A DNA stretch of 64,000 bases from NCBI GenBank assembly GCA_010093705.1, contig MU006089.1:1971561-2035560 (forward strand), read 5' to 3'. This DNA is from Patellaria atrata CBS 101060 (lineage: Eukaryota). The position numbers and the translations under genes are program-made. The notes under the pieces were generated by a model, which saw only the letters and a program-made list of their open reading frames with translations, had not been told where the DNA came from and did not search any database. This document shows positions 2,947 to 30,198 of the stretch, one piece after another (positions within the stretch are counted from its first letter, which is position 1; each line of letters starts with the position of its first letter).

Positions 2947-3808
2947 GCCTGATGAACTAATAAGGTGGACGTACTGCTGGTGCTGGACAGTACCTTAGGG
3001 GATCTCAGAATACATACCTTACCCGTCCCGTATCGCCTCTTACAAAAGTCTTTCTCTTTTCGCTGAACTTACCTAGGTTTCATCGCCTCCCTCAGTTGGA
3101 GGCCTACGGTAATCACCTTGCACTCGACCTGTGCTTTGTACTCGTACTGGAACAGAAAGTAGCCGGGGAGGACTCTGCCTTGATGTCTTCCTTTCACCTG
3201 TAAATGTCCCGCTTGTCCCGCCATGCTGTGGGAATACGGTACTTCTATTTCAGCTCGCATCCACCGATTAGGCTTGAAGGAAGGATGAGCTGATGTCATT
3301 TATGCTAAGATAGTCGAAGGAACGGTGAGGCTGAGCTGAGCTGAAATGCTCCCGCACGAGTCAGGGGAGGAATCGTCAAGCGAGGAGAAAAACGCACAAA
3401 AAGCCGCAAAATGATAAATCGACGGAAAAGGGGAAATTCCACGCTCATGTCGTTGAAGTAAAGTGATGATAAAAGTCATAGTCACGATTTCACTAGAAAG
3501 AAAAAAGTTGGAGAGAGGGTACACATATTCATTCGATCATATCCTACATAACCGTGAGCCCTCCTCCCGAAACGCCCGTGATGCTTAAACCCGCAAATGC
3601 CTTTTGTCTTCCATGACCATCCGCCAGTCTCGTACCCACATGCGCATCAAGCGCGTGACATGATCTTTTCACCTCATCCTGCACCTCCGACAGCTCGGTC
3701 GGCGATCTTCTCCCTGGTATACCCAAGACTACATCATCGCTGAACCCGTCAACGCCGTCAACGCCTGAAACCCAATTAGCCAACAAAAGACGAAGGAGGG
3801 AATTGGTA

Positions 3809-4815
3809 TCAGAGCTCCGCTGCAATGCCAGGCTCGTCGCACACAAAGGGTGTTGCGCCTGAGTCGGCGTGCAATTCGAAGAACTTTCCACCAAACCCGT
3901 CAACGAAGTTCGCTGAAGCTGAAAAAGTGTTGCAAGACGTATTAGCGTCGAGGGAAGAGGAGAAGAAGGAGTCCTGCTGTTGTTCCAGGAGGGAAGTGTC
4001 GCTGTCCACGAGCGAAGTAAGGTCGAAGAAATCGCCGAATAAATTGTCGTTAGCGACAGCTGGATGTTGAAGAGTAAGAGAAGGGCAATCATCGAATTGC
4101 ATGCACTTCGTGTCTGGAGTACCGAAGTCGAGGCTGAGAGGTGTTTGGGCGAATCCGACTGACACTGCAGGTCGCACAACATTGCTGCAGAATGTTGTGT
4201 CCGGTCGGATTCACTCATCATCAGCTCGCCGGTCGGTGTGGATGGTTGACTGATTGTGTCGAATGGAGAGTCCATGCTGTCGAGAGTCATAGATTCCGGG
4301 CTAGGAAAAGACGTCTGACGTGGGTTCACGGTGTCGTCCGATGGGTGTGCTGATTGTAGATGTGATGGGTTGTTTAGAAAGTTTGGGATTTTAGAGAAAA
4401 GTTCTTCGACAGTGTTGAGGTCAACAGGTGTTTGACCTTCAAGTGGTGCTCCAGTTTCTCTATACGATCGGAGTTCAGCTGTCATCAACTTCACATGATC
4501 CCTAATATTTTGTAGACGCATTTCGAGTTCGTCTTTCTCTGCCTGAAGGTGTTCCACTTCTTGGCGCTTGCGCTCCCTTGAGTTATGGGCTGCAAGTCTG
4601 TTACGCTTGACACGTTCGATGCGCCGTTGTTCCTTCTCATCGGCAGTCTTGGCCCGTTTCCTTGGGGGAAGGTTGGTCTTGGGTTCTGGGAGTACTTGAC
4701 CCCATGACTTTCTCTTCTTTGCGGGCTTTGCCTCTGTGGCGGGGGGTGTGGCAGACAGAGAGTCTGGCGACTGCTGGAAATTTTCCATTTTAATGGTGGT
4801 TGGTTGTTCGGCCAT
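3809..4815 (-). CDS. hacA: UPR bZIP transcription factor HacA/Hac1, induced (spliced) form; the unspliced frame runs on to 3544
   Basis: KKRKSWGQVLPEPKTNLPPRKRAKT..EKEQRRIERVKRNRLAAHNSRERKR bZIP and QHSAAMLCDLQC intron-spanning signature. Removing 4168-4187 gives ..QHSAVSVGFAQTP..GIAAEL*. Start placed at MAEQP (4815); in-frame ATGs also occur at 4923 and 4962. Confidence 0.95.
4168..4187 (-). other. 20-nt unconventional (Ire1-cleaved) intron of hacA within a bifurcated stem-loop (4151-4212)
   Basis: Two CTG^CAG sites lie 20 nt apart. The 5' site is in a 7-nt loop closed by CACAACATT/AATGTTGTG, the 3' site in a 7-nt loop closed by GAC/GTC, and the basal stem is GAATCCGAC/GTCGGATTC. Confidence 0.95.
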
Positions 4816-7440
4816 GGTAACCGTGGGTGAGACCTTTGATGAGGACGAGGATGAGGATGGAGGTAAAGTCTTAGTGGTGGACAGATTGTTGTTCTTGTTT
4901 GTGGAGTGGATGTTATCGTTCATGAAAGCAACAAGAGAAGTTCGAAGAATGTCCGTCTCCATAAGGGTTGACTGCACAGAGAATGCATATGGATGGAGAT
5001 CGGGAGGCGGGTGATGGTGGGTTGAAGTGGTAGTTGGAACAGGGCAACAAAGGAGACAGGTGTCCTTTATGTAGCTGGGAGCCTGAACGATTACGATGGG
5101 GAAGCGAATTACGCTAATCACTCTAGCCCAAGGGGTGCCGCGCACTGACCGAAGTGACCGAAACGACCCCTGGCCCTGAAAGCGATGCACTTTAAAAATA
5201 AATTATCGCGGCTGATCACAGTACATCATTCTATAAACCTTCCAGGCCTACTTTTTGCCCTCCATATTGCCATCATTTTGCTTGAATTCTTCGACGGCCC
5301 GTACAGATAATGTGAAAATTGGATGTCCAGTACTGTAAAGGTAGGACCGAGGTCTTTCCTATTTGGCTGCTTGTCGCACCATTATCAACGATTCGCACAT
5401 TCCCAATTTAGGTGGATCGCGATGACATCTCCTTCCAGATTGGGGAGAAATACCGTAAAATAAATGAAGGAGGGTATGTTTTAAGGAGGTACCTCCACCT
5501 CCATTGTGTGAGAGGATAAGGCAAGGTACCTTATTACTACTGTAATGTACAGTGCTGTAGTAACCTAAAGATTCTGATGATTGACCTTAGGGTTACTCTA
5601 TCATTCTTCCCCCACACAGAACAGAACTCGGGCCCCTGAATGTCAACCAAACCCTCCGTAGAGGCTAGTTCTATCCAACAACCCCAAACTCTCCGCGATA
5701 TCTTTGGTAGCTTCCTTCCCTATTCTTGTATATACAGTAACATGTGAAGCGAACCTCTACCTACCTACATTATGCACCAACTCTCCAACAGGCAGCTACA
5801 TTTGTTTGTAAAACAGTACGATAAGGAAAGGTAACGTCTGTATTCGCAATGATGACGATGCAGTCGAAACACGAAGACGGCGTACAGTAGTACCCGATAC
5901 AGTCAGACCAGGTCTGCCTTCCAGATCCTCAAATTCGCCCAATAACACTTGAAGTTATCCTGCCGCCTATTTCCAGTATAGTATTATGAAGATACTTTTC
6001 ACCTTTAGGCCCACGATAGTCGAATTAGGTAGATGAATTTTCCTCCTCATCTTTTTAGTTCTGACTTCGTCGTGCTCATGCTCTCTCCACTTTTCCTTCC
6101 TACTGTAACACTTGCTGATGTGGGATATACACGAACTTAGCCAATAAACTTTTTCGTGCAGGAAATCATTTTCGATCTTTGATCCAGCTCAGATCCTCAC
6201 AGTCAGCTCCTCGACTCGTGGATTCTCAGCAGGAAAAGCCTCTCAGACACGACCTGCATATCTCGTTGACATTCGAAATCACACCGCATCACTTCAAACA
6301 CCACAAAAGTGCATTCCAACAACAACAAATCCAACTTCACAGCACGCAAAATAATCCCCTCACTTTTCATAGCCATCTTACAGTACCTTACCTTCCTCCC
6401 TCCTTCTAGAAGCCCGCACATGACACCAGAATTACCCCAGACTCCACCGCAATTAATATCTGTTTCCCGGCTGTGCCGTGCATGAACGAACCCTCAAATA
6501 CCCAGGCTTCCCGTCGATATTAAAGTTATTAACATCACGCCTCTCCCCAGATTATCGACCTTTCGAAGAAGAAAAAAAAAAACTACCCGCTGCATGTCAA
6601 ACATTTCGAGACTAACTAGACGTACTGTACCTTACTCGAACTCTTCGAAACGGGCTTTCAACCGCCTCATCATCCGGTAGCGAAAGTACAAGGTAACCTT
6701 TTCACGCTTCTATTCAATGTACTGCATCGCTTATGATATCCAGGCCCTCAAATTTCCCTCAGGTCAAAGAAGAATCAAGGCATCCTACAGTACTGTACTG
6801 CACCTCCAAAGCAGCTCGAGATTTTCGAAATCACCTCCAAACGGGAAGGGTTGCTCAAGGCTTGGAGTGACTGGAAGGCTCGCCTCACCTCACCAGGTCT
6901 AAGAAGCCCAAACTACTACACGATACTCTACCGCATACGGTAGACACGTGCTCTTCATACCAAACCCGTTCACATAGTAAAACAAACCCCACTGCCCAAT
7001 ATGCAATTGCTTTATTACTCCCACATGGCCACCATCCTCAAATTACCCCATAAAAACCCTTTCGCACCAACGTGACTTCCCTCAAACCTTCCATAATACT
7101 TCCATCCTTCTAGCTCCCCACCAGGACCCACTCCAATATATACAAAGTACCTCAACTTCCGTCCTACCTTAAAGTAGCTCCCTTTCAATGGAAGGACGCC
7201 GATCCGGGGTAAAATGAAAGATCTGGGGTACCAGATCGCCCGTGACGAACTCCAATTTGTAATTTCTTCCCTCCGCTTCTAGACTACCGCTCAATGTATG
7301 ATCAAACAGTAGCTCATCACGAGATTCCATACAGTATGGTAGACATTACGAGGAAAGGGAGCTCTATTCCTCTTCCATCCAAAAAGAAAAAAGAAAAAAT
7401 CCGGGGAAAGCTTCACATGACTTCACGAGCGACCTTGAGG

Positions 7441-7600: not shown

Positions 7601-10600
7601 TCACAAACCCCCCAAATCCTGCCCCGCCCTCGCCAACGCCTCAAACACCCTCGGCGGGAGCTTATACCTCACCAACCCGACAAAAACCATCAAATCCCTC
7701 GCCTTGCCCAAAAGCTCATCCGCCAGCGCCCGTCTGGATGGGACATCCTCCCACCCTCCCTCGCCTAGCAACTCTTCCCTCCTGCGCCCGCAACACGCGA
7801 TGGCCCACATGAGCAAATTGCCCACATTGCGCGCGACGACGGGCTGGAGGGCGTTAAAATTCTGCGCGTGCGCCCGGATCTGCGGGATCGAGCCCCTCGC
7901 TGTCAGCGGGAGGAGCTCAAGCTTGGTGATGAGGTCGACGGCCTCGATCCACTTGTGCTGCGCCACGAGGGCGCGGGCGCGCGACATGTCGAGGAGGACG
8001 CCGCAGGCTGCGCGGTTCGCGGTCGAGATGCGGGAGAAGTATCCGGCGTCGCGGTCGTAGAAGGATATCATGTTTTTGGCGAGGATGACGGGGTCGTCGA
8101 CGGCGGTGAGGGAAAGGCTGTAGTCTGCTTGTTTTGTCTGCTGGGCTGAAGCCGTGGTGCGTGGTTTGAGGGGCTCGAGGCGGATGTGGTCTTCGCCGAG
8201 GTCGAGGGAGAGGGCGTCGGAGAGGGAGCGGTTGATGATGCTGACGACGTTGTCGTATTCGCCTGCGAGGTGGTAGAGGAGGACTGCGTCTGTAATGCGG
8301 CCGCTGTCGTCGGCTACCGAGGCCGCATTGATGGTAATGCTCTTGAGGAAGTCGTCTTGGTCGGATAGGCCGAGCAGCTTGAGCCGTTGCTCGATTGCGC
8401 CTTTGATACGTTGCCCGTTGATGCCGAGATCGCCAAGTAATAGGGCGAACTCGCGCGTTTCGAGGACTAGCTCTCGCAGAGCTGCGTGGCAGAGATCAAC
8501 TTGGAGGCGACCGGCTTCCCCTCGCAGATCGGCATTGAGACAGATGAGAGTGAGATAGTCGGTGGCAGCTTCGGCCTTGGCCGTGCGGAAGTCTCTGGTG
8601 TAGACACCTAGCATGCGGCCAAAGTTGAGTTGTGGCTGCTGCTTCGTAGTAAATGTCACTAGACGGAAAGTCAGTCGTATATTTCTGATAAGCTCCGGAG
8701 CCAACTTACGCAATTCAGACTCCGACACCGTCCAGTTAGAGACGCGCAGCAAGCCATAGAACGTCAGTCCAATGGCAAAATGCACAGCAGCAACATAATT
8801 GTGTGGATACAGATACGCAACTGCCTGTTCAAACATGCCACACAAGATCTGTAGGTAAAAGTAAACACTGTAGCCACCAGCTTCTTGGTCATTTCCAGGC
8901 GCAAAATGTCTCGCACCGATTTCTTTGATATCGGAGCGAAGATCCTCGAGACCGAAAAAATCTCCTGCCGCTTCTTCGACACGACTCACTTCTCGCGCAA
9001 GGGCGAACTGAAGCCACAACCAATCATCTAAGCCCTGGTTGATGCCTTCAAGGCTCCGTTTTCCAAGATCACATCGACCGATGATCTTGTAGCAAGCTTG
9101 ACGGTAAGGATCAATATTCTGTTCCGCGTTCTTCGCCTGCGATTGATATTCGTTCTCAATCTTACGCTGCGTGGCTGATTCTATCCGGCCATCGGTACTC
9201 TTGTAGAATGCCAAGAGGTAATTATAGAAATTCCTCGAGAGCGATTTAAATGCCCGCTCATTATCTTTCACATATTGAACGGCTTCGAGCACGAGCCCGC
9301 AGCGAAGGAGATAAAAGACAAGCACCCAACAGTAGTCATCCTCGATCTTTTGGAGTTTTTCCACGTCGCTCCCCAGCTCTTTGCGTGCTGCTCGAAGACG
9401 GACATATGCCTTAATCCTATGGGTATCTGTGGGAACGCCACCTAATTTTGCTTCTTCTCGCGATTTCAAGATTGTTTCTCTAACTCTGTTGAAGAATTGT
9501 TTCTCGAGGAACCTTCGTGATCCATTGAGAATACGTTTGCGAATGGAGATGCTCCTTGCTGAATTAGGAGATTCATCCAGATACTCATCAAAGTATTGTC
9601 GTTCCCTGATAGCCCCAGGATCGGACGGTCGTTGTATGTCAGGATTCTCGCCAGTGATTTCGATCAGAGCTCTATACGCATCATCCAATTTCGCAACGTT
9701 CTAATCACAAGTCAGTGAACTGATGGAGGAAAAATAACTGTGGTCATCACTTACATCCAAGCCCGGTTGAGATTCTGCCTCCGCAAATTGGGTCAAAAGG
9801 GGGAAAACTAAGTCCTGTAATCTATGCAGATTAAGCTCCTTGACCTTCTCAGCGTATTTTTCTTGCTTGTTTCTCTGGTGTGGATCTTCTCCAAAAGACT
9901 GGCCCTCAGAGCTCTTAGTTGACACATCTGTAAAAGATTTATTTCCGCGTGTGGACGCTCTTCCAACCGGACCTCCCAGAACAGAGCGTCCCAAAGATGC
10001 ACCAAAAGTACTCCCACTCATGCCTGAACTGCCTAGTGGGCGACCTCTACGAGATGACTTGCCGAAAGCTCCACGGTCATCCTCACCGATTCCGCTAATG
10101 CCGGCCCCAGAATAGTCCTCTGATTTGGCCAATCCGAAATGTTCGTAGATCCGTCGACGCTGGGCGTCCCATTCCATCTGAACGTTTTCCTCTAGAAACG
10201 CGTCAAAGTCCCGTTTAGATTGTTCAAGACCTTCAGCTATAAGATCTAAAGTGGATTGGGTTTGGAGGTTGGAGAGGTAGCCATCAATATCTGTGTCGAG
10301 GCCGGAAATCCCTGTAGGGACCGGAACATTTGTTTGCGCATTTAAATTGTTCAGGTCTCGAAGAGCAGCTCCTGTTTGCACACCGGATGCAGCAAGTAGA
10401 TAATGACTGTAAACTGTTAGCATCCATCATTACATCTCCATAAGAGCATACTCACGTCTTTACGTCTCCAGCACGTGCTTGTGAAGCTGAAGGACCTCCA
10501 GTGCCCAGGTTTCTGACTTTCCTGGCAATATCACCTAATCCTAACTGTAGAGTAGGAAGATCTCCCAGAAAACTTCCAGCATTCTCCTGGTTCTGTCTCT

Positions 10601-11420
10601 TCTTACTTCTCTCTAGAAGATGATCAAAGTACGAGGACGTTCCGGGAACGTTTTGTGCTTGGGTTCCGTCTTGTGCTTGTTGGGGCACTTGCTGCTGCTG
10701 CTGTTGTTGCTCCATTGGTCGTCCGATTCCACCCATACTTCCAAAGAGGGAATTGGAAGCCGCTGGTGCACTTGTGGCAGGGGCATTGTTGGTTCCTAAA
10801 CCTCCAAATAATGCTCCTGTAGATGCTGGTGTCTGTACAGTTGAAGCTCCTAGCCCACTGAATAATCCACCAGAAGCTGCTGGCTTTGGTTGACCCAAAC
10901 TTGGAAATAAATTTGAACCTTGTGCCGTCTGCTGTTGCTGAGGTTGCGATGTCCCTAGACCGCCAAAAAGGCTTCCACCTAGAGCGGGTTTCTGTTCCTG
11001 AGCTGGCGTCTGCGAAGTTCCCAGATTACTGAACGCGCCTCCACCCGTCGTTCCAGAATGTTGTTGTGGTTGAGATGTACCGAGATTACTGAATAAGCTT
11101 GATCCTGAACTGGCGCCTGTATTCTGCTGTGCTGCGCCGCCTAAATTGGAGAATAAGGTAGACGTTCCAGTCGATGGCTGCTGAGGTGCGGAGGAAGTCG
11201 CATTTCCCAGGTTCCCAAACGATCCCCCAAAACCCGATTGTTGCTGCTGTTGCCCACCTCCAAGACCCCCAAAACCAGAGTTTTGCTGCTGTGTACCGGT
11301 ATTTGCGGCCCCGAAAAGACCTCCTGTCGACTGTGCTGTGGTTGCTGGCGTACTCAGATTTCCGAACAGATTACCACCTGGCTTACTGGTACCGCCGCCA
11401 AGATTTCCAAACAGAGACAT
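7601..11420 (-). CDS. NIC96: Nucleoporin Nic96/Nup93 with FG-rich N-terminal extension
   Basis: Start MSLFGNLGGG at 11420; introns 10407-10455, 9701-9754 and 8659-8709 join three track ORFs. Motifs LPTLQLGLGDI, HYLLAASG, W..VFYLLRCG, DPY...CYKIIGRCD and DWLWLQ. Confidence 0.92.
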
Positions 11421-12158
11421 TGCGGGCGGCAGAAGAACAGAACTAGTAGTAACAAATGTTACGGAGCGACGGGCAGGCGGAGGTGTAAAAGATCCGTAGC
11501 TGGTGATGCTCGCGAACGCGCTGTTATGAATTTCTTTGGAGCTATTTCCCTTGTTCGTACAGTGAGCCGGGAAAACCTCGGCGTTGTCCTTCACAGGGCC
11601 GACCACAAACCTGCCGTCTGATACCAGATAACTTCAGAATGCCATAGTTACACTTTTCTCTGAGATCAAGTGTCATTAATGTGATACCGATGTCTAATTC
11701 AGTTTCTTTCCTGGACTAGACATCAACGTCAAGGGAGAATCTTCATCCCATGAACTCCTAATGCCCTTCTCATTCACTAATCTTTTAGCTCCTATTCATT
11801 TCCTCCCAGCTTCAATTACAATCAATCTCCTTTTAATTTAAAAATAGAGTCTGATAATAACTTCCATCGGTAAATTGTTACTTGACTTCATGTGAGCGTG
11901 GGTATACCACCTTGAAGATAGTCTAAACGTGGAAGAATACCAAACCTACGTAGTTAAGATAGTAGTAATAGTCTTCTATATAGATAGCTGGAACGATAGC
12001 ATGTGCTACAAGAGTCAAGATATCACCAGTAAAGGGGCAGAGCATAAACGTGACTCCATCACAAACAAGATATTTCGTCACAAGCATACATTACCTTTCC
12101 CAAATCAGTCACCTAGCCAGTTACTTTATTTATGAGCTCCGCAGAAGACATCTCTAAT

Positions 12159-13400: not shown

Positions 13401-15160
13401 TTACCCTTCTTCTCTACAAGAAACAACCACTACAAAACCCGTTAGCCTCAACTTCATTCCGCACCAAGGAACCCAACTCACCATAACCCCAGCACTAAAC
13501 CCCGACACAACACCCAACGCCCACCCCATAGTCCCCCACCCCGCATGATCCCTAATCAACCCCGCAAAGACCGGTCCCACCGTCGTCCCCAGCGCAAAAC
13601 TCATCGAGAAGAACCCGTACGCCTGTGCATACGCGCCCTTTTCCCCCAACACGCCCGGCTCCTCCTCCTCCACGCTCTCGAGGAAGCGCGTTATGCCGAC
13701 CATGAGCGGCGGCACGACCGAAGAGATGGAGCCGCCGATGAGGAAGAGTAGCACGCAGAGGATCACGATTTGGGAGGGGGAGTTGTGAGTTACGAAGCGC
13801 AGGAGGATGAGGAAGGGGGCGCCGAGGGCGAAGCCGGCGGTGGCGAGGTAGCGCGGGCCGTGGCGATCGGTTAGGGCGCCTAAAGGGGGTGAGTCAAGGT
13901 TCAGGGTTAGAGTTGAGGGATTTGACTGGGAGAGGTTATCTGAGGGGAATGAGAAGAAACGGGGAAGAATACCGATATAGGGTTCCGCGATACCGGGGAT
14001 GACGATGGGGAGGAAGATTAGACCGGCGAGGGTGGGGCCCCAGTTGAAGGTTTCTTCGACGTGGAGGGGGAGGACGCCGTCGAGACTTGTTAGTAGGGAA
14101 CCTTGGATTAGGATGCCCCAGAGCGCGGCGAGAAGTCGAGTCGATCGGAGGAGTCGGAATGTTCGTTTTGCGAAGACCTTGATGTGCCCGACGGGTTTGG
14201 GTTTGGGTTCGTTGTTTGGACGTAGCTTGGGGATAGAGGTTCCTCGCTCTGTGGGATCTGGGATCTCCTTTTCCGATTCAAGGAAAATGGGTTGACTGGT
14301 CTGGTTAAGATGTCTCGCATCCCTCTTCTCGATAATCGACAGCCGCAAAGCAATATCGAGTGCTAGAAGCCCAAAGGCCATCCCAAACACAGCATAGTAA
14401 CCTTTCTGTGCATATACGATACCTCCCAGCAACGGCGCAATGAAAATACCGCCACTGATTCCGAGGGTAACGTAACCAGTCGCAAGTCCAATCCGTTCAG
14501 GACCTACGGTATCAACCAGTAGAGCGAGGCCGGATGACCATACAACAGCTGCAGCGATACCTTGGAAGACTCTGCCTAGTACGAGTAACCATATGGTTCG
14601 TGCTAGACAGAGCATCAGGGTAGAACCTATGAAAATCCCGAGGCCGACAAGCATGGTGATTTGTCGTGTCTTTAACACGTCGGCCAAGTAGCCGAAGATA
14701 GCTACAGAATTAGAGGGTTTCTGGCCATGGTTTGGAGATCAGAGTGGGCCACGTACGTGAAAAGAGAAACCATGATGCACCATAAACGGCTAGAAGAATG
14801 GATGACCATGTTTGAACTATCCGGTATGAGTAGGTCTCCATTCAGGGTAATATCGGACTACATACTATCGCTCTCATCGATACCTGCTCGATTGACGAGG
14901 GCAAAGGGCATTACGGGCACAAGCTTTCATTCTGAGCAAATGACTGGCACTAGCTGATATTTTAAAACATACCATGCCATATAAAAAAGTATCCTAAGCG
15001 TGTTACTTCCATATCCATATATCTTTTCGAACATAGAAAGGGTTCAATAGCATACAGTGAACAGCGCAACGCTGACGGTAGTGATGATATACCAATCTGC
15101 CGACCTGACATTGAGGAACACATGTTTCTGCTTCTTTTTCCATTCCGCTAGAATAGTCAT
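13401..15160 (-). CDS. MFS transporter (vesicular amine transporter/DHA1-like)
   Basis: Start MTILAEWKKK..RSADWYIITTVSVALFT; several short introns, including in-frame 13880-13972. Multiple TM helices with GRVFQG, LLVDTVG, DRHGPR and AYAQAYG motifs. Confidence 0.9.
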
Positions 15161-15639
15161 AACGTCAAGGGGTAGGCGCGGTTAACGACAGTGTTTATGG
15201 TGTCCGGAAGGATGGAGAGAAATCAATAAGGTGGGATGGAGGAAAAAGGACAAAGAGATCACGGCGGAAAATAAAGAACGGAATGCATCGTTGCCGGTTC
15301 ATATGACTCTAATCTCCCACACAGTTTGATGGAAAGATAGTCCGTCAGATTCGCGGCGTGATGGCTTCAGCGGTTAAGGTAGTACAGGTAGGTTGGTGGT
15401 TCCCGCTCGGACAGGGCGGAGCGGACCAACTCTTAGTCATCGGGCCGATCAAACATAAGGGCTCAAAATAGGGGCGGGAACTCATATGTGCACAGTCTTA
15501 CACATTGGTTTTAGGTTGTTATTGTGTATATGCAGTCAGATCAATATTACAGAACTAAGGTATACTATTTACATGAAACGCTGAATTCTTTTATTTTACT
15601 TATGCCGAAAGTTCGAACAACTCTTTCTATTCAGGGAAA

Positions 15640-17654
15640 TCACAACCTAGCTTCTATCTGCCGTTTCTTTCTCCGTTCTTGGTCTATCAGAACCCGCCTT
15701 AAGATCTTCCCGCTGGGGCTCTTCGGGATCGCATCGATGAACTCAACACCGCCTCTGAGCCACTTATAATTGGCTTTCCCTTGCTTAGCATGTCGTAATA
15801 TGCTCTGTTTCACAAGAGCATCGCACTCGGCCATGCAAACTGACGATGATTTTGTGACGAAAGCTTTCGGGACCTCCCCGTAATACTCATCAGGGACGGG
15901 GATAACTGCGCAGTCTCCGACTGCTGGATGAGTGAGGAGATGAGTCTCTAACTCTGCAGGAGCAACTTGATGACCCTGGTGGCAGTTGTGTTAGCACCTT
16001 GTGTATATTCAAGCAATTGGGAACCATACCTTGACTTTTACGAGCTCTTTCATTCTGTCGATGATGAATAGATGTTGATTCCCGCTTGGTGCTTTCCTGA
16101 ACATGGCTTTATCACCAGTACACAGCCAGCCGTTTTTGAAGGTTTCATTGTTTGCTTTTGGGTTGTTGAAATAGCCAAGTGCTACAGAGGGAGAGCGGAT
16201 CAAAAGCTCCCCGGCTTGATCACAATTTTCGACTTCTTTTCCTTCTTCCGTGACAAGGCGTGCCTCACAACCTGGGATTAATGATCCACAGCTGCCCATC
16301 CAAATATCTTTGCCGCTGGTGGATGAGACCACGGTGCTGGTTTCTGTAAGTCCTGCAATATGCTAAGCCACATTTCCAAACACATATAGTGCTTTCGACA
16401 TTGGAATTCACTCACCATACCCCTGTCGAATAAGCCAACGAGGGAACATCTGCTGTAGTTGAGCGGCAGTCTCTTCACCGAGAGGTGCGGCGCCGGTGAC
16501 AGCATGTATTACAGAGCTCAGATCGTGCTGCTCAACGACGGACTTACTTTTGATTAATAAGACGAAGATAGGAGGAACCTGCGATGTCAGTTAGAAAACA
16601 TCATAGGGTCCTGAGAGTTGGTAGCTACGAACAAGGAACAAAGTTGTGATCTTGAATCGTTGAATGGCATCTAAACTTTGCGCGAAGTCGAATTTCGGCA
16701 GAACAACACTGCTATCCCCACGATATACGTTCTCGTGAAGTAGCATAATGAGACCGTAGATGTGGCTCATTGGGAGGATTCCAAGAGCGACTTCGGCAGA
16801 TTCTCTATGAAGCCGTTCGTATGCATCTACCTGCAGGATATTTGAGATGACATTCCTATGAGATATCATGACTCCTTTCTAAGATGTTATTAACACCTTG
16901 TGCGTTTTGGTAATCGCACTGAGAAACATCACTTACTGGAAAACCCGACGTACCGCTCGAATAGCAGAGAAATGCAGCCCTTCTCGCACCGTCCCCATTT
17001 CCGAGCCGTAATCTCTCAAGTGAGGGTCGTCTTCTACCGTTTCGTATCAGATCGTCCACGGTCTTCAACCCATTCACTGTGCCTTGGACTCCGGTGCCTG
17101 CCACCTGGAGTACATAGATTCGATTTTCTGGGATTCCTACCGCCTTCGCTGCTATGAGAGCAATTTCAAGCAGAGGAGAGCATGTGAAAAGGCACTTCGC
17201 CTTGGAGTCTCGAAGTTGGAATTCTAGCTCCTTAGCGGTATATGCGGCACTAACTGGGGAGACCAAGCCCCCTAAGAGATGTGTTGCCCAAGACACAGTG
17301 CCATAATCAATCTATATAATGAAAATTAGGCAAAGTTACAAGAGTGGAAATTAGATCAAGTAAAGTATTTCAACATACGCTATTCAGACTAAATACCGCA
17401 ACGACCTTCTCAAACTCTGTTCCCGCATTCGAGCTCCAATTCAATTCCGGAGCGAGCCCGCGCGCCAGCAAATCAACACGTTCTTTTACTTCTTGTACCG
17501 AAAATGATTTTCCAGTTATCCCACATACGAATGGATCCCTTGATTGTGCAAAAGGAGCGCGGCCCGTACTTTCATCGAAAATGAACTCGGGAATCGTAAC
17601 AGAGCTGGGGGGATTCGCAAGCTTTGGAACCCACGAGGGGCTATGGAATATCAT
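15640..17654 (-). CDS. Acyl/aryl-CoA ligase (4-coumarate/phenylacetyl-CoA ligase-like, ANL family) with C-terminal PTS1 (-ARL)
   Basis: MIFHSPSWVP start; YSSGTSGFP-KGV, QGYGLTE, GWLCTGD, DRMKELVKVKG, PKSPSGKILRR; ends IEARL*; multi-exon. Confidence 0.92.
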
Positions 17655-19122
17655 TTTCGGCTGTTCCTCAATTACTGTACTATTACACAGCCAGAGGTCG
17701 TCCAGGACATCAGCAGGTCTTTCAGATAGGATGTCCAGTATTAGGTTTGCTCCGCGGGAGGAGGAATATTGATACATCTTATATCCCGCTACGATCACGG
17801 ACTTGAAGATATAAAGTCAGTGCCTCGTCAACGGCGAACTACCCTGTGTTAATAAGGTGTCTCCCCTTGAAGAGGAACCACGGACCATGGTGTTAAGCTG
17901 TGTAATGTAAGAATCGACATCTGGTAAAGCATCATACCATTTCCCGAATTCTAACACTCGAGTAACGGAGTGATCTTAGCGGAATTTCGTGCACGGCTAC
18001 TCCCTGTTTGTTCTACAACCCTGGTTACAGAAATCCGACGCATATGGTGTACGATCTCTAAACAGACTCCAACCCGGAGGACCACGCCAAACTATAGGTG
18101 ACTCCAGAGCCATTGTTCTATCAGATGTTTCGAGGGCCCGATGTGCTTGTACAGTAGGTAAAGAGTAGACGGATTCTACTTGTACTGTACATTTGTCATA
18201 AGCGTTTGCTGAACAGGTCTGATGCCTGAAAAGAGCTCTATCCCCGTTCAGATACCATAAATTAGTTCGATACTATTTAGGAGATGATTTTCAGTTCGGT
18301 CGAATTTCTTAGACTGTCTGATACAGAAGTCCGTCCAGTTGGTGAAGTGATGATGGTAGAGCTATCAAGCGGAACTCCAACATCCATCTTATGAAAACGG
18401 GTATGCGGTCCACACTAGAGTTTCGGGTAAGATGACCAGGAATAGCATCCACGATACTGCAGGAGTTCATGTTGATCAATTCGTAGCCCTACGCACACCG
18501 GGAACAGCTCGCAAATCGGTGGGACTAAGACGTTCCTGGGCTTCCAGTTTTAAGGGGATCGGATCGACATACCGAGATCTGTTCAACGTGAGATTCGGAA
18601 AATCAGATCAATAGCGGGATATAACCTTCCCCATATTTGTGTCAGAGACTTGGAGTTGACTGGAGAGGATGACGCGAGGGACGGAAGAGGGACAAGACGG
18701 AAGAACCCCCTAGACCGTGCCCACCAATTGATGCGTCGGTTCTATTCCCTTTTTAGTAGTCACTCTTGAGTCTTCCACCGCCCTTCGTCCCCAGTCTTCA
18801 TGCAATGCATGTGAGCGATTAGTGAACCAGATATGTTGGGTATGCTGATGATCGACTGCATCTGGAGAGCACTGAATCTGAAAAGGTGGAAAGGAGAGGT
18901 GGAATGGGTGGAGTAGGGCTTAATAAGCTCCATACCGTGCAGCACTTCATGGGCATATTAATTCAGAAGAAAAAAAAAATCTCAAGGGAAAACAGAGAGG
19001 ATAGGGGTAATCATTAGCTAGTAAAAGATTATATTCATCGTCTGCATCGTAATACACATTAATCGCCAATTAGCAATACAGATCCCCACTACCGTAAACA
19101 CCATTGACTCTATCCGATCAGT

Positions 19123-20551
19123 CTACAATTTCTCCTTGAGAATAAGCTGCCTCTTCCAATGTGTCCGATCTTTCATGTACTCCATCTTCTCCTCCGCCCA
19201 CTGAATGATAATTTCCACCAGTCCATCAATCTCATCAATCGTATTATCCGTGTGAAACACGAGACGTACGCGGCCCTGATCCCGCGGTACAACGGGGAAG
19301 TCGATAGGCCATGCGTTGTAATCCGCATATTGCATGTTTGCAGCGAGCTGGTGATTATCTTCGTTCCGTGTCCAGACTGGCACAATCTGAGACACAAACT
19401 CTTTCCCTTCAAAATTAAGACCCGAGGGTAGGTCAAGTATACCAGCCTCTTTGGCGATAGTGAAGGATGGATGATCGAACATCTTCCTGTAGAAGTGTCT
19501 TACAAGAGTTTGAAGGCGTAGCCGGCGCTCCTCACAAAAATCGCTCCTTATAAGAGTATACGCCGCTCTAATTGCAGCAAGTGTTGGAAAGGAGGGTGCG
19601 GTGGTGTATATGAGGCCATGAGCGTAGTTGATGAGCATAGTTCTAATGGTCTCATTCCCAACTACAGTGGCTATATCGACTTGGATTAGCAAAAGTTCGA
19701 TGAGTACAGCGTTTAGGGTTTGGGGACAAACCTCCGTTGCAACCTAGACCTTTACCACATGTATGTAACCTAATAGCAATACGATCCTCAAGACCAAGCG
19801 CGCAAACAAGGCCTCTCCCATTCTTTCCCAGCATTCCAGTACTGTGTGCTTCATCAACGATAAACTCCACATTTCTCGTGGGAAAAACTTCATCAGCGAC
19901 GCGAACCATCTCAGTAAGCGGGGCAATGGTCCCATCCATACTGTAGATCGATTCCGTGGAGACAATCACTGTGCGCTCCCCGGACCGGAATACTTCTTCT
20001 GAGTCATGAAGCTCCTGAAGAACGGCCCGGAAAGAGTCGACATTGTTGTGCGAGAATGATCTCCTGATAGTAGCTTTAGTGTTGCGCATACCATCGTGGA
20101 TGCTAGCGTGTACCAGCTCGTCATATACAATAGCATCCTTAGGCCCAGGGAAAACTTCGAAGAGGGAGACATTGGCGTCATAACCAGACGAGAAGATTAC
20201 ACCGTCAGTGGCATTGTGAAATTGAGCGATCTCCTTCTCGAGGTTATTGATATATGTGTTATTGCCGTCGAGCAGTCGAGAGCCACAGCTACCAACAACA
20301 AACTTGGGATACTTTGCAAGCTCTTCGTAGAAAGCCATCCTCAAGAGACCAGAGGTAGAAAGTGAGAGGACATCATTCGATGAAAAATCAACCACATTGC
20401 GTGGTGTTTTCAGGACGTATAATCTATCTTTCTTGCGGCGATTGTCGAGACGTCGTTCCAGATTCCTGTAGAATGTTGGTCCGTTTTTCAAGGTACGTGC
20501 CTTTGGCTTCTGGGCCACGATCATATCGTGAAACATTTCGAATGCCGACAT
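19123..20551 (-). CDS. PLP-dependent alpha-oxoamine synthase (class II aminotransferase, BioF/AONS-like paralogue)
   Basis: SSNDVLSL, GSRLLDG, SGYDAN, DELVHASIHDG, ESIYSMDG, DEAHSTG and HTCGK (PLP lysine); intron 19671-19731. Confidence 0.92.
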
Positions 20552-21116
20552 CTTGATATGAATGCCGACTGTTGATTATTATGTGTGAGGAGTGGAATGA
20601 GAAGGGTAGACTGTCGAGGGATGTTGAAGAATACTGTTATGGGCACACAAGAGAAAACAGAAGAAATTTTAGAAATTGGAGGGAAAGTTTTATAGTCTGA
20701 CAACGAAGAGTGATTGAAAGTATCTCCACCAATAAAAGTATCAATCGGATGAGGAGGTTTAGTGTGTTACCCTCTACGAGAAGGGCTTTAGAATTCCATA
20801 TATCTATTGATATCACCATGATACCCGCGGAGGACTGAGGGGTCTTATGTTGATCATGAGGTAGTCACAGAAAACGGACGAAAGACATCATAGTCCATGT
20901 TGGGGATAAACTAAATAGAGGTTAGTAAGTAACGAACTAGCCGATGTATAAAATAGTAAGAAAGATGAGGAGTGGTATTAAAGGTTGAGATGGCCTACAA
21001 CAGATAACATATTGATGAAAAGCATTATCATTGACTTAGAACCATGGAAACTCACGTCTACAAAAGCGATCCCAATATCCTCTTATGCTTTCTTTACTTT
21101 ATTTTCACAGTCTACC

Positions 21117-22002
21117 ATGCCGGAAATAAGGGTAAATCGTATAGAGCAACGAATAAAGGTGAGTAGATGTTACATGTCAAATTTACATTGCTAATGCTAG
21201 AATTCAGCTCTTTCGTATCACACTGTGGCCGGAATTGTAGAGCTTCTGCTATACTATGGTGGATATCAGATATCTGTAATCTCGTTAGCAGCTTGCCTCG
21301 TACATTCGATCAGTGGGATGATGTTGGTCAAAAATTTACGGAAGGGATATCCGACTCTCACACGTACGTACCACATGAATGGAACTAACCGACGAGCACT
21401 AAAGAAATAGGGCCTATGTACCAGGGTGGATCCGTGTTGCGGGCCATAGCAATGATACGTGCGTACTATAGCAAATCGCCCATAGAATACCATGACGCCA
21501 TTGTTCCTATTCACTCGTTCGTATATGCACGAAGCCTATTTTTCATACTGGGAACCATTGGCCCGACACCGAATTTCCTGAAGAACGCCAATTCAAAATA
21601 CGTATATGCTGCTGCCATATACGGTGCAGCTTTGGTTGCTGTGGGCCATTGTGTAAATCAATGGGCAATTTTACAATACATGTTTTGCGTTCACGCAATC
21701 GGAAAATTGAACTTTTGGACCCGGAGATCGGTCGATCAGTGCAAGTATGATGCTCCAATGGGAGGAGAGATGAGCCGGTGGCTTGATATGACTGACTGCC
21801 GCACAGAGAACGGAAGGAGGAAATCCCAAAGATGTTGAAGATACTGCAAAAAGCAGGTCTGTGTTCATTTCCGCAGCCGTCAGATATTGATATGCAAATA
21901 ACACTGAATGACGGCCCGCGAATCGGGTTTCTGCGTATGGATAGCCTTGGCCACATATGGGCGAAATCGCTGGCGGTGCCGGGTAGAGTTCCATCTTGCT
22001 AA
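21117..22002 (+). CDS. Uncharacterised polytopic membrane protein with several His residues
   Basis: Reconstructed with introns 21159-21200, 21364-21410 and 21745-21806: ..YHTVAGIVELLLYY..LVHS..GYPTLTRPMYQGG..YHDAIVPIHSFVYAR..VGH..VHAIG..PRIGFLRMDSLGHIW..; hydrophobic segments. The first exon is the least certain. Confidence 0.7.
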
Positions 22003-23565
22003 TACTAACGTAAGAGATATGCTGACATCTACAAGTAGATGAAACACTCAATGTGGACAACTTCCGCCGTGAAAAGGGTTCCGAAGTGCTCTTTCCTCAT
22101 TCGTCTAGCTTAGTGAATCCTAGCGGGAGATCTACAATTGGTATGCAATGTTTCATACTGTACGTCTGTATATTGCCGAAAATAGTATTTTAACAGACAA
22201 CTGCGTATTTAGGACGAGAAATGAACCTACCTTCATCGAAAACGAGTAATACTAGTAAGGCCTATCCTCGTGCACATATTCTGAACAATACTGTTCCTTC
22301 TACAACCGAAAGTTTGATTCCAACAGCTGGAGATCCTGCGAACGTACGGATTGAGATTCTCGTAAGCACCGGAGAGAACTCCCCGTTAAAAGAAAACCAA
22401 TCAACTCGGGAATCAAAAAGGATCGGAAGCCTACGATCACCAGCGGGCCGCACCCGGGCGATCGAGTTTGCAGCGCCGCGTACCAAAAATTTATATGTGT
22501 ACAAGGAAGAGATGATTGATTTCATGAGGAGTGAGGTAGGCTGGGTGGTCGATAGTCTGCAGCTCGGCTTATCCTCTCTCTAGTATTGCATTTGAGCGAA
22601 GGTAGAGCTTGTGGTGGAGAGTAAAATGTACTGTACAACTGATGAAAGTAAGAAAGGTCGCGATTTGAAGATATTAATGAGCATCGATTACAATATGATT
22701 CCGGTAATAGAAAATATAGAGTGATGCATCTTAAAAGTGACTTCTGCCCTTTGAGGAAATTTGGTCTGCCTCGAGCCTTGGCCAGAGACAATACAGACAC
22801 AGCACCCTGCTACTCCCTACTGTAAGAGAAACGAATATCAATCTGGATGTCGCTCTTCCCCTGAATAGTCACACTTCGCATATTCCTAGAGATTATACAG
22901 CTTGTGCCTGATGTTGTAATCTTGAGAAAGGATCTGAAGTGAGGTTCGGACAAGAGATGCATGATGTAACATTCGGTTATCTCGTACAACTTCTCACCAA
23001 TGCCTTATTTAGGTTCGAGAGAAGGTTTCATATGTGTCGTACGATGAGGCGTGCTCTATGTACTTTGGTTGACAACCCGATTGCACAAGATCAAATAACT
23101 GATATTGCTGGACATGGCTGAAGATACGGACAACCACCAAAGACCGATATCTCCAAGTATTTTGTTCGGAAAAGGCTGTTTGTATCGTATGTTAGTGAGA
23201 GTGCAAGAGAAATGTACCATCTACAGCACAGTAAACAGTGTCGTTTGCGCTATTGTTATAATTGCTATGGAATCAACGTCGTGTTTGCCCTATTCAGTGA
23301 GATTGTAGAAATCTAATATGTCAATATTCACCGTACAGCCGTAACCAGTTTGATCAAACTGACGCACTAATGAAGTAGCAAATGTTTGTATGTCTCATAA
23401 AGCGCAACAACTTCGACTTCTTAAACATCTCATAGAGTCCGTTACATCCCCTTGGACAGTAGCAGTAAGGTATATGCGCAGACATCGAACCCCTCAGTCG
23501 CTTCGGCGCAATTCATTCCCTTTTCAACTCAACCAACTGTGAATTCAGTATATCTCATAGAGATC

Positions 23566-24075
23566 ATGCCTCCATGGCATCCCGTTGACCTCCCATGGGA
23601 ACCCCCAGAAGTTGAGCATATGCCGGGTATTGGATGGGTACAGAATGGCCGGATTCTGCGAGGCCTTAAACCAAAGAAGGCATTCTACTGGCCTAAGGAC
23701 GGAAAAAGAGGTACAACATGGGGTCGATGGAAAGACCTTCTCAGCGGACAAGGACCAGACATCCATATAAGGATAAGCGGTGAGAAAAGGACTCGACCAT
23801 GGGACGGTCCAAGCAGGGCGAGGTGGTCGAGGTGGACAGAGGACGCGTTCGTGGCTCCATGGGAAACGGAACAACCCCTTCCATCACCGTTTTGGGCTCG
23901 TAGAAAGGCCCATGAAAAGTACGATTTCAGGACTCGGAAATTCACTAAGCGGAATCCAGATCCGTCATGTTGGACAGATGTTCGGTGGCAGTATCCTCCG
24001 AATGATCATTTCAGAGATCCATATGCATTTAGAGATCTAGATGGTCGGTGGTGGCAGGATACACCAATCGGTTAA
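23566..24075 (+). CDS. Small Trp/Pro/Arg-rich hypothetical protein
   Basis: Uninterrupted ORF from MPPWHPVDLPW with protein-like composition (FYWPKDGKRG..WGRWKD, YDFRTRKF). Confidence 0.65.
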   Translation: MPPWHPVDLPWEPPEVEHMPGIGWVQNGRILRGLKPKKAFYWPKDGKRGTTWGRWKDLLSGQGPDIHIRISGEKRTRPWDGPSRARWSRWTEDAFVAPWETEQPLPSPFWARRKAHEKYDFRTRKFTKRNPDPSCWTDVRWQYPPNDHFRDPYAFRDLDGRWWQDTPIG

Positions 24076-24090
24076 CCAAGAAGAACATCT

Positions 24091-25065
24091 TTAGACGCAT
24101 ACTTCATGAAAAGCATGCCATTGAAGTTCAGTTTTGCCATTGCTTGTATCCACAAGTTGTCTCTTTCTTCCCACGGGTGTCATGGCTTTGTTATCTAGAA
24201 GTTTGCCACATCTTGAACATTTAGCTTTCCAAAGATCGGCATAGGAGGATATCATATTCTAAGACGTCAGTAATTGTTAACATATCTTGATGGGGAACCT
24301 ACAAGAACATCTTCCAGGTTATTGAAATGTGGTCTCGTGGAAAGAAATCTATTTATAGCCCTATGTGTTTCAGAAGACCCAACACATTCAACCCCATACG
24401 TACCCTTGTTCCCTTGCAATTCCTTTCTGGTGATTATAAAATTCATGAGCATCGTTGGTACTCTGAATCGAACCTCTATGACGCTATTCTGCTTGCTCCC
24501 GTCGGTCGTGGTTACGGTGAATTTAGGATAGCCGACCTTAAAGGCGTCAATGAGGCTACTAATATCTTCATCGCGGCGACAGCTTGATTGTTCAGCCTCG
24601 ATGTCTCCTTTATTCTCCAACTCATCTTCGGATTGAAGCCAGCCGTATTTCGGGATATTGAGACCACCACTTAGGTTCTTACTCCTCTGCTCACTCTCCT
24701 TTGCCGCCCGGAAAATATCCTGGGTTTGCTGGTCCGCCCAAGTAGCTTTGAAATCGCTGATATCTTTGGTTCTTTGAATCCCTGCTTGACTGAAATCATG
24801 GAAAAGCTGTTCTGGTGTTGCTGGGCTGGATATGAGAGGCTGGATAAGGCTTGCAATTGCGAAACGAAGATCCTGTATCTTGGGAGAATGTTAGATAGAC
24901 TGTAGCTAGAAAATTTAAAGAAAATCTATGCAATACTTCACGTACTTGGTTCTCTAAACGTTCTAGATGGGCGAGAGCTGTCCTACAACGATCCTCGTCC
25001 CAATCTCTGGGCTGCACTTGAGGATCTTGTGAAGTATCAACGGTGTGCGAAATCGCTGACGGCAT
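24091..25065 (-). CDS. MED27: Mediator complex subunit Med27 (fungal)
   Basis: N-terminal WDEDRCRTALAHLERLENQ; the spliced C-terminus RPHFNNLEDVL-NMISSYADLWKAKCSRCGKLLD..WHAFHEVCV carries a CxxC..HxxC zinc motif. Confidence 0.8.
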
Positions 25066-25692: not shown

Positions 25693-27028
<1,336 letters not shown>

Positions 27029-28643: not shown

Positions 28644-30198
28644 TTACCCTACCACACCATTAGCCCTAAGACTCTGAATCTCCTCATCACCCAGCCCAAC
28701 AAGCTCCTTCAACACCTCATCGGTATGCTGACCCAGCGTCGGCGGCGCCGTCCTGACCCCAGGCGTCGAAACCGAATACTTGACCGGCGTATTCACCAGC
28801 TCAATCTTCCCACACGCCTCATGCTCGACCTCGACGACCATGTTGCGCGCTCTGACATGCTCGTGATTGAGCGTGGTCTGCACATCGTTGATGGCGGCAT
28901 AGGGCATCCCGCTGCCATCGAAAACCCGCAACCACTCTTCCGTCGTCTTCTTGCGTGTTTCGGTCTCGATCATAGCTTCTAGCGTGTCTCTGTTCTGAAC
29001 CCGCACGTTGTTCGTCGCGAACCGTGGGTCGCGGCTCCACTCTAGCTTTCCCAGTCTCTCGCACAGCACGCCAAATAACCTGTCATTCCCGCCGCCGATC
29101 AATATATCGCCATCCTTTGTCGCGAAGGCGCGATAGGGCACGATAGACGGGTGTGCGGTGCCCCATCTACCGGAGTCTTTTTGCTTACTGATGAGGCAGG
29201 AACTCGCGATGTTAGCTAGAGTTGCAACCTGGCAGTCGCTCAGGGCCACGTCAATATGCTGACCAGCACCTGACTTCGCACGGCCGAGAAGCGCAGCCAT
29301 CACCGCATTGGACGTATAGAGACCGGTTGTGAGATCGGTCACCGCGACTCCGACTTTGACGGGAGGGCCGTCGCGTTGGCCGGTGATGTGCATGAGGCCC
29401 ATTTCACTAGTTAGAGAAGTTAGTGATAAAGGATAGGAGGGTGTCTAGGGGAAGAATTACGCCTCGACCATGACATCGTACCCTGCGCGATTGCTGTAAG
29501 GACCTGTTTGGCCGTATCCTGTTATGCTTGCATAGATTATATTCGGGTTCACCTTGGCCACGCTCTCATAGTCCATGCCATACTTTTTCAGCGCGCCAGG
29601 TAAGTAGTTCTCTACTAGGACGTCGCAGTCCTTTGCCAACTTGTGTAGGATATCGACTCCAGCGGGATGAGCGAAAGAGAGTCCGATGGACTTCTTGTTA
29701 CGGTTGACGGAAAGAAAATATGCGCTCTCTCCTGAACCTTTATGAGGGAGATCATCTTTCAGATGTTTTGCGTAAGGCGGGCCCCAAGCTCGTGTGTCGT
29801 CGCCCCTGGTTGGGTGTTCGATCTTGATGATTTCGGCGCTATTGAGCGGGCCCATTGTCAGTGATGAATGTACGTAAGGTGCCAACTATAGAGGAGTTGG
29901 TTCATACTGGGTATCTTGAACCGTACCCGAGATCGCCTAGAATTTGCGTACAGTATGGCTATCGTTTTGTGAGCAAATGGGTATGAGATAGGGGGTGGAG
30001 GAAGGTCATACTCCAGCAAGCACACGAGTCATATCAAGAACACGCAGTCCAGCTTGATCAATCAGCTCGGAATAGCAGAAGTTATTGAATTCAAACACAC
30101 ATACCCAGTGGGAGCGATTGTGTGCTAGGAGAACTGGCATATTGTCTCCGCCGTACTGTTGCAGAGCAATTGGTGTGGGAAAGAGCTCTACGCAACAT
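28644..30198 (-). CDS. CoA-transferase family III (CaiB/BaiF; SUGCT-like), probably mitochondrial
   Basis: MLRRALSH presequence; [51 protein letters not shown]..RAGYD and PTLGQHTDEVL. Confidence 0.93.

Follow-up and report, generated by a model that had tools for sequence, protein, structure and literature searches.

A 64-kb stretch of nuclear DNA from Patellaria atrata CBS 101060 (the window; it contains introns and was translated with the standard code) carries a gene for an alpha-oxoamine synthase (AOS) and, divergently transcribed beside it, a gene for an orphan multi-pass membrane protein, and these two genes appear to form the conserved core of the locus. The synthase belongs to a branch of BioF-derived enzymes that lack a peroxisomal targeting signal type 1 (PTS1). 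At a probability of roughly 0.5, this enzyme would make a sphingoid-base-like aminoketone, probably from acyl-CoA, which the membrane protein would then handle. A PTS1-bearing CoA ligase and a DHA1-type transporter of the major facilitator superfamily (MFS), both encoded next to the synthase, are candidate genes for donor supply and export, and their membership is plausible but unproven. The locus had been described in a first-pass annotation as a four-gene cluster free of polyketide synthase (PKS) and nonribosomal peptide synthetase (NRPS) genes, and the genes for the MFS transporter, the CoA ligase, the AOS, and the membrane protein were indeed found at roughly the coordinates that it gave (Table 1).

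Genes in the window were located as stop-to-stop open reading frames (ORFs) searched against Pfam, and the exons of the AOS and the ligase were mapped by tblastn of the annotated proteins onto the window. The AOS gene consists of two exons on the minus strand, from 20551 to about 19731 and from 19671 to 19123, which are separated by an intron at about 19672-19730, and the translation of these exons is identical (100%) to the annotated protein P0001 of 455 aa. The Aminotran_1_2 domain was recognized on the stop-to-stop ORF 19652-20575 (minus strand), and in the whole protein it covers residues 52-420 (PF00155, E 1e-32). All 42 of the columns that are at least 93% conserved among 54 aligned members are retained, including H148, D233, H236, and K267, the last of which is the catalytic lysine for pyridoxal 5'-phosphate (PLP). 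Judged from its sequence, the protein is an intact alpha-oxoamine synthase of the class II aminotransferases. The source annotation names its family '8-amino-7-oxononanoate synthase', and the best NCBIfam model was bioF (E 3.5e-53), with a score of 180.6 bits that falls far short of the cut-off of 426. The full protein matched, over residues 11-438, the structures 9dos, 9dri, and 9ds0 (E 4e-119) and the structure 9pep, named 'Aminoacyl transferase sphA' (E 2e-113); 9DRI is described as SphA (PMC13351049). Structures of bacterial KBL, serine palmitoyltransferase (SPT), and BioF were matched by exon 1 alone at E 5e-33 or weaker. A serine, S91, precedes the invariant Arg92 in the AOS, the same as in SphA, and S91 probably corresponds to the position called 'ALAS-83'. 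At that position, a serine is linked to AONS-like enzymes and to the use of small amino acids, as described in PMC7376913.

In fungal BioF, a conserved C-terminal PTS1 is reported to be required both for the enzyme to reach the peroxisome and for biotin to be made (PMC3713238). A C-terminal tripeptide of the form [SAC][KRH][LM] was used as the PTS1 marker, and BioF-type sequences were recognized by such endings and not by name. The AOS of the window ends in EKL, a non-canonical tripeptide outside this pattern. Its homologue list comprised the best 120 of 5,221 matches and reached down to about 49% identity; none of the 119 non-self proteins in it had a canonical PTS1, including none of the 42 with a length of 450-520 aa. 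The signal was present in 42 of the 146 new representatives that an exhaustive HMMER search added, and in 35 of the 98 with 365-520 aa. Two trees were built, a quick one with 121 rows and a more careful one with 59 (LG+G4, with ultrafast bootstrap/SH-aLRT support), the latter rooted on six rows of about 380 aa without PTS1 that were assumed to be bacterial, and they agreed on the placement of the AOS. The 59-row tree placed it inside a clade of 24 rows (100/99) in which the other 23 rows all lacked a canonical PTS1. The sister of this clade was a 5-row clade (100/98) with the signal in two of its five rows, and the signal was present in 22 of the 24 remaining eukaryote-type rows; the PTS1-less clade branches from within the eukaryotic sequences that bear PTS1. 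The nearest kin of the AOS were P0002 and P0003 (JGI), with which it formed a 3-row clade (100/98), and the next group out consisted of proteins from Aspergillus terreus and Aspergillus wentii (98/86). The proteins of this next group, P0029 from A. wentii and P0035 from A. terreus (497-502 aa), end in SLL.

In the same tree, the SphA type is within the large clade that contains the AOS but in a separate subclade, and bit scores against the SphA structures were 712 for P0046, 401 for the AOS of the window, and 335 for the PTS1-bearing P0147. A grouping of the synthase with true BioF, which the first-pass annotation had named as evidence against its own proposal, was not seen, as the AOS fell outside the PTS1-bearing BioF-like clades and together with the SphA type. 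From these results, the protein recorded as '8-amino-7-oxononanoate synthase' is unlikely to be the enzyme of biotin synthesis.

The second gene of the core was resolved into three exons (21117-21158, 21201-21363, and 21411-21838) with canonical introns at 21159-21200 (GTGAGT..AG) and 21364-21410 (GTACGT..AG). It is predicted to encode a protein of 210 aa with four to five hydrophobic segments and a stop at 21838. The first-pass annotation had extended this gene to 22002, an end that could not be reproduced: it needs an additional intron, and the trial splice 21745-21808 was out of frame, so 21838 is preferred. Neither the exons nor the relative described below matched any Pfam family at E<=10. 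When exon 3 was searched against 5.8 billion proteins, seven candidates were returned, one of which was a match, namely P0142, a protein of 119 aa with 61% identity. The plus-strand frame of the gene is confirmed by this relative. Two antisense ORFs on the minus strand, 21543-21998 and 21671-22096 (151 and 141 aa), overlap the gene and had no Pfam match; it is the plus-strand frame that P0142 supports.

P0142 comes from a JGI contig of 5,511 bp, and the contig that encodes the closest homologue of the AOS, P0002 (JGI, 64% identity), has the same length, 5,511 bp; the alignment of P0002 to the window is interrupted at the position of the AOS intron. Since the contig size and the source are the same, P0002 and P0142 were taken to lie on one contig, which would mean that the AOS and the membrane protein are conserved as a pair. 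On this one case, the pair looks conserved in a second, fairly distant fungus. Two names for the membrane protein were considered, and neither found support. The source name of P0142, 'hemolysin III family' (PAQR), had no Pfam backing at E<=10, and a Tim17/Tim22/Tim23/Pmp24 identity was suggested for P0142 by the ESM Atlas at 0.89, which is under the 0.9 line for a lead, and had no Pfam match. The ESM Atlas gave no usable match for the membrane-protein ORF of the window. An AlphaFold2 model of the membrane-protein exon, built from a two-row alignment, had a mean predicted local distance difference test (pLDDT) score of 43 and a predicted template modeling (pTM) score of 0.22, and was too poor for fold comparison. 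Since the protein matches no family, there is no basis for the 'tailoring' that the first-pass annotation had assigned to it.

In the proposed chemistry, the AOS would use PLP at Lys267 to join an acyl thioester to a small amino acid by decarboxylative condensation, the likely amino acids being alanine, serine, and aminomalonate. A sphingoid-base-like aminoketone of the 2-amino-3-keto lipid type would result, and the membrane protein may handle this lipophilic amine in a membrane. The acyl donor is probably acyl-CoA, because there is no PKS nearby and SphA accepts acyl-CoAs in vitro. Among the 30 long ORFs (at least 130 aa) that were scanned over the 64 kb, no PKS or NRPS domain was found, which bears out the description of the locus as free of both. 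The same scan gave no match to an SDR domain (short-chain dehydrogenase/reductase), with shorter exons lying outside its reach, and none to a domain like bioDA or bioB; near the locus, none of these ORFs was recognized as a gene for a ketoreductase or a ceramide synthase. As described in PMC10936153, SphA is mainly cytosolic and condensed serine with palmitoyl-CoA in vitro, the latter being made in situ by the CoA ligase FadD. Since SphA works with ligase-made acyl-CoA, a ligase-fed AOS would be chemically sound for this clade.

Several points weigh against a two-gene core of this kind. The placement of P0002 and P0142 on one contig comes from equal size and source and not from a contig name, and it is a single case. 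No relative of the membrane protein was found for the close AOS homologues P0003 and P0004 in the search of 5.8 billion proteins, in which short split exons could be missed. The part assigned to the membrane protein is a guess, as the protein fits no family, its structure model is unusable, and its recognition in the Atlas is low. On the SphA side of the clade, the known enzymes have a PKS and a ketoreductase as partners according to PMC7376913, so that a distant PKS partner is possible. Furthermore, the genomic scope here is the 64-kb window, and a separate BioF in P. atrata would be an assumption.

The ligase gene next to the AOS was recognized by AMP-binding and AMP-binding_C domains on five minus-strand ORFs between 15640 and 17311, and its annotated protein P0121, named 'phenylacetyl-CoA ligase', maps as exons from 17654 down to 15640. 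P0121 matched AMP-binding at E 9e-69 and AMP-binding_C at E 8e-14, and its best matches in the PDB were 4-coumarate-CoA ligases (E 3e-72), followed by a fatty-acyl-CoA synthetase; the exon 16856-17311 alone gave no match in the PDB. On these domains and structures, P0121 is an ANL CoA ligase of the 4-coumarate-CoA ligase (4CL)/luciferase type. Its C-terminus, ARL, is a canonical PTS1 tripeptide. All 12 homologues of at least 550 aa, which come from Pleosporales, Myriangium, and Fusarium, end in SKL, AKL, or GKL (canonical PTS1 in 10, GKL in two), and 13 of the 20 non-self homologues can be aligned with P0121 over its whole length or almost all of it, at 50-60% identity. These 20 came from Exserohilum, Stemphylium, Alternaria, Plenodomus, Decorospora, Neocucurbitaria, Myriangium, Pyrenophora, Cosmosporella, two Fusarium species (including Fusarium langsethiae), and other contigs; homologues with 50-60% identity over the full length were recorded in each of these genera other than Exserohilum, for Fusarium in F. 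langsethiae. None of the named species occurred among the 119 best AOS homologues, and no contig size was common to the two sets. An AOS orthologue from Pleosporales would be expected within the best 120 matches, which reach down to about 49% identity, and none from the named species was there, which suggests that the ligase family exists without the AOS. This comparison covers the best 120 of the 5,221 AOS matches and a ligase query of one exon, and the 5.5-kb contig of P0002 and P0142 is too short to extend to the expected position of a ligase exon.

The ligase is apparently an ordinary member of a conserved and apparently peroxisomal group of ligases. As it ends in ARL and the AOS ends in EKL among kin without PTS1, the two enzymes may be located in different compartments. 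The proposal of the first-pass annotation that the ligase replaces a PKS as the acyl donor finds support in part: ligase-made acyl-CoA is accepted by SphA in vitro (PMC10936153) and the scanned ORFs contain no PKS, but the distribution of the ligase appears to be independent of that of the AOS and the C-terminal tripeptides differ.

The main ORF of the transporter gene (13401-14738, minus strand) matched MFS_1 at E 4e-43 and TIGR00880 at E 1e-18. The ATG at 15160 is its likely start codon, and several short exons at the 5' end were modeled by eye from reading frames and splice sites. A proline- and serine-rich stretch at about 13700-13800 splits the MFS_1 match in two and resembles an in-frame intron that is read through. 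Among solved structures, the same stretch of about 120 residues matched VAChT (E 1e-8), VMAT2 (2e-7), NorA (2e-6), and a YajR-type protein (1e-6). The protein fits a DHA1-type exporter, as an MFS_1 protein of the 12-transmembrane type, and these structure matches, which are the basis for calling it 'amine-type' as the first-pass annotation did, do not show an amine specificity.

The MFS, ligase, and AOS genes share a strand and follow one another in tandem, 479 bp and 1,468 bp apart, and the 565-bp divergent gap between the start codons of the AOS and the membrane protein is as had been described. No transcription-factor gene was found within the four-gene stretch. The three upstream regions (the AOS/membrane-protein intergenic region and those of the ligase and the MFS gene) had one 8-mer in common, compared with a mean of 0.24 and a maximum of three in shuffles, and no 9-mer.

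Table 1. Genes and intervals of the locus and its flanks in the 64-kb window of P. atrata CBS 101060.
Feature	Coordinates	Strand	Basis or remark
MFS transporter gene (DHA1-like)	13401-15160	-	MFS_1 match; main exon 13401-14738
4CL/luciferase-type acyl/aryl-CoA ligase gene	15640-17654	-	AMP-binding and AMP-binding_C; annotated P0121, 572 aa
AOS gene	19123-20551	-	Aminotran_1_2; annotated P0001, 455 aa; two exons
AOS/membrane-protein intergenic region (divergent)	20552-21116	.	565 bp
Orphan multi-pass membrane-protein gene, about 210 aa	21117-21838	+	Splice sites, hydropathy, one relative (P0142)
Nic96	7601-10426		One flank
Arginine methyltransferase	25693-26654		Opposite flank

The four genes had been said to sit between housekeeping neighbors. 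This is right insofar as Nic96 lies on one side and an arginine methyltransferase on the other, but ORFs without a family intervene on both sides. Between Nic96 and the MFS gene there is an ORF of 393 aa (10452-11633, minus strand) with no family beyond a weak match to DUF5850 (E 0.04), so that the housekeeping flank and the MFS gene are not immediate neighbors. Between the membrane-protein gene and the methyltransferase, the ORFs 23425-24075 (plus strand, 216 aa) and 24267-24890 (minus strand, 207 aa) had no Pfam match at E<=0.1. The Nic96 flank also carries a carboxypeptidase and a bZIP protein; the bZIP transcription-factor ORF (3544-5202, minus strand) is found past Nic96, at a distance of about 8 kb from the MFS gene. 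The other flank also carries a riboflavin synthase and a family III CoA-transferase. The latter was recognized at 28644-29885 (minus strand) on two ORFs (E 5e-60 and 7e-42), about 6.8 kb past the membrane-protein gene, and is a further CoA-thioester enzyme nearby; its ORF ends in VVG, without a PTS1.

The proposal of the first-pass annotation was that all four genes form one PKS-free cluster, in which the ligase makes an acyl- or aryl-CoA for condensation with an amino acid by the AOS, and the resulting compound is tailored or handled by the membrane protein and exported by the MFS transporter. This may be so, and we hold it as a tentative possibility. Three of the genes are in tandem and the membrane-protein gene is divergent, the enzymes are chemically complementary, and the 30 scanned ORFs hold no PKS. 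As far as the sources describe, a CoA ligase supplied the acyl-CoA in the SphA assay and an MFS transporter is present in the sphingofungin cluster (PMC10936153), and the CoA ligase Fum16 shares the fumonisin cluster with an AOS (PMC11796371). On the other hand, the named species with ligase homologues are missing among the best 119 homologues of the AOS, the 20 contigs with ligase homologues all differ in size from every contig of these 119, the PTS1 of the ligase faces an EKL ending in the AOS and no PTS1 in its 42 full-length close homologues, so that the compartments may differ, and no promoter word is common to the upstream regions beyond what shuffles give. The independent distribution of the ligase would also suit an origin of the acyl chain from a PKS or fatty acid synthase (FAS) encoded elsewhere, with the locus as a split or remnant sphinganine-analogue cluster and the ligase and MFS genes as unrelated neighbors. 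Members of the SphA side act on PKS products and the Fusarium clusters SAM1-SAM5 are defined by genes for PKS, aminotransferase, and dehydrogenase according to PMC7376913, and in PMC10936153 the polyketide from SphB is said to be 'collected' by SphA. This origin is nevertheless unlikely: neither a PKS nor an SDR was found among the ORFs scanned in the 64 kb, the AOS is in a subclade separate from that of SphA (401 versus 712 bits for P0046), so that the habits of the SAM clusters need not apply, and a fully intact AOS gene argues against a decaying remnant.

By analogy, the locus may instead be a module for sphingolipid supplementation or self-protection, in which a soluble, homodimeric, SPT-like AOS and a fatty-acyl-CoA ligase would bypass the inhibition of SPT by toxins of competitors and the MFS transporter would efflux the toxin. 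SphA can act as an SPT on serine and palmitoyl-CoA and reduces self-poisoning (PMC10936153), and the palmitoyl-CoA ligase Fum16 belongs to a self-protection subcluster together with a transporter (PMC11796371), as these sources describe. However, Fum16 is located at the endoplasmic reticulum (ER) according to PMC11796371 and P0121 carries a PTS1, P0121 is closest to 4-coumarate-CoA ligase structures and only after these to a fatty-acyl-CoA synthetase, and the scanned ORFs nearby included neither a ketoreductase nor a ceramide synthase gene; the case is one of analogy only, and we regard it as very improbable. The least likely of the alternatives, which we consider negligible, is that the AOS is BioF, the synthase for KAPA (7-keto-8-aminopelargonic acid), and that the ligase makes pimeloyl-CoA for an early biotin pathway. 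It would agree with bioF as the best NCBIfam model (despite 180.6 bits against a cut-off of 426), with the name '8-amino-7-oxononanoate synthase' that the sources give to the family, and with the predicted peroxisomal location of the ligase, which would be like that of fungal KAPA synthesis (PMC3713238). The PTS1 that is conserved and required in fungal BioF according to the same source is replaced by EKL in the AOS, the AOS lies in the PTS1-less clade (0/23) apart from the PTS1-bearing clades, and no bioDA- or bioB-like domain occurs in the 30 ORFs. The biotin reading was rejected on the tree placement and the PTS1 evidence.

The AOS family itself is already known, and what is new is its context, with no PKS or SDR among the scanned ORFs and with an orphan membrane partner that looks conserved. 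A literature search, with most subscription journals outside its scope, found nothing on a PKS-free fungal locus of an AOS and a CoA ligase or on the Patellaria locus, and a search of the same kind, again with subscription journals outside its scope, found nothing that joins oxoamine synthase, pyrazine, and fungi; among the matches listed, papers that name P. atrata were taxonomic or, by title, unrelated. The known AOS pathways of this clade (sphingofungin, myriocin, and the Fusarium SAM clusters) begin with a PKS, and cluster finders rely on a backbone gene. If an intact relative does its work in the absence of a PKS, paired with an orphan membrane protein that is conserved, it would represent a type of small amino-lipid locus that escapes present genome mining; backbone-centered predictors would miss such a locus, and the products may act on sphingolipid metabolism. 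The broader proposition of a PKS-independent fungal route to sphingoid-base-like aminoketones, with a SphA-related AOS sublineage, acyl-CoA from the neighboring ligase or from primary metabolism, and a dedicated small membrane protein of an undescribed family, is rather doubtful at present. If the genes are mere neighbors, a narrower result would stand, namely a misnamed AOS that is probably not the biotin enzyme and a ligase that is an ordinary member of its group.

Among characterized systems, the fumonisin cluster likewise has an AOS (Fum8), an ANL-type CoA ligase (Fum16), and a transporter in one locus (PMC11796371). Fum8 is described as a fused Lcb1/Lcb2-like AOS (PMC7376913), and shares less than 20% identity with the MyrA/SphA type (PMC13612406). 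In addition, the fumonisin cluster has a PKS, and Fum16 is described as a palmitoyl-CoA ligase that serves self-protection at the ER and not donor supply (PMC11796371). The ligase of the window resembles PTS1-bearing, 4CL-like 'phenylacetyl-CoA ligase' proteins of fungi, which have the same two Pfam domains, a PTS1-type end, and 50-60% full-length identity to P0121; a ligase of this group next to an AOS was observed only at the Patellaria locus. In bacteria, BioW-BioF and the C5N cassette (an ALAS-type AOS with an acyl-CoA ligase) pair a CoA ligase with an AOS in the absence of a PKS, with other ligase families and other products. Fungal BioF is a member of the same wider family as the AOS of the window, which differs from it in having no canonical PTS1, in falling outside the PTS1-bearing clades (100/99), and in having no bioDA or bioB neighbors among the scanned ORFs. 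The closest comparison is with the aminotransferases SphA and MyrA and those of the Fusarium SAM1-SAM5 clusters, as the AOS lies in the same PTS1-less BioF-derived clade, has the same context of the catalytic lysine, and carries a serine before Arg92 as in SphA; its C-terminus falls about 30-45 residues short of that of the members with 465-517 aa. The SAM clusters are defined by a PKS and a dehydrogenase according to PMC7376913, whereas the locus in P. atrata, with no PKS or SDR in the 30 scanned ORFs, has an orphan membrane protein as the partner of its AOS instead.

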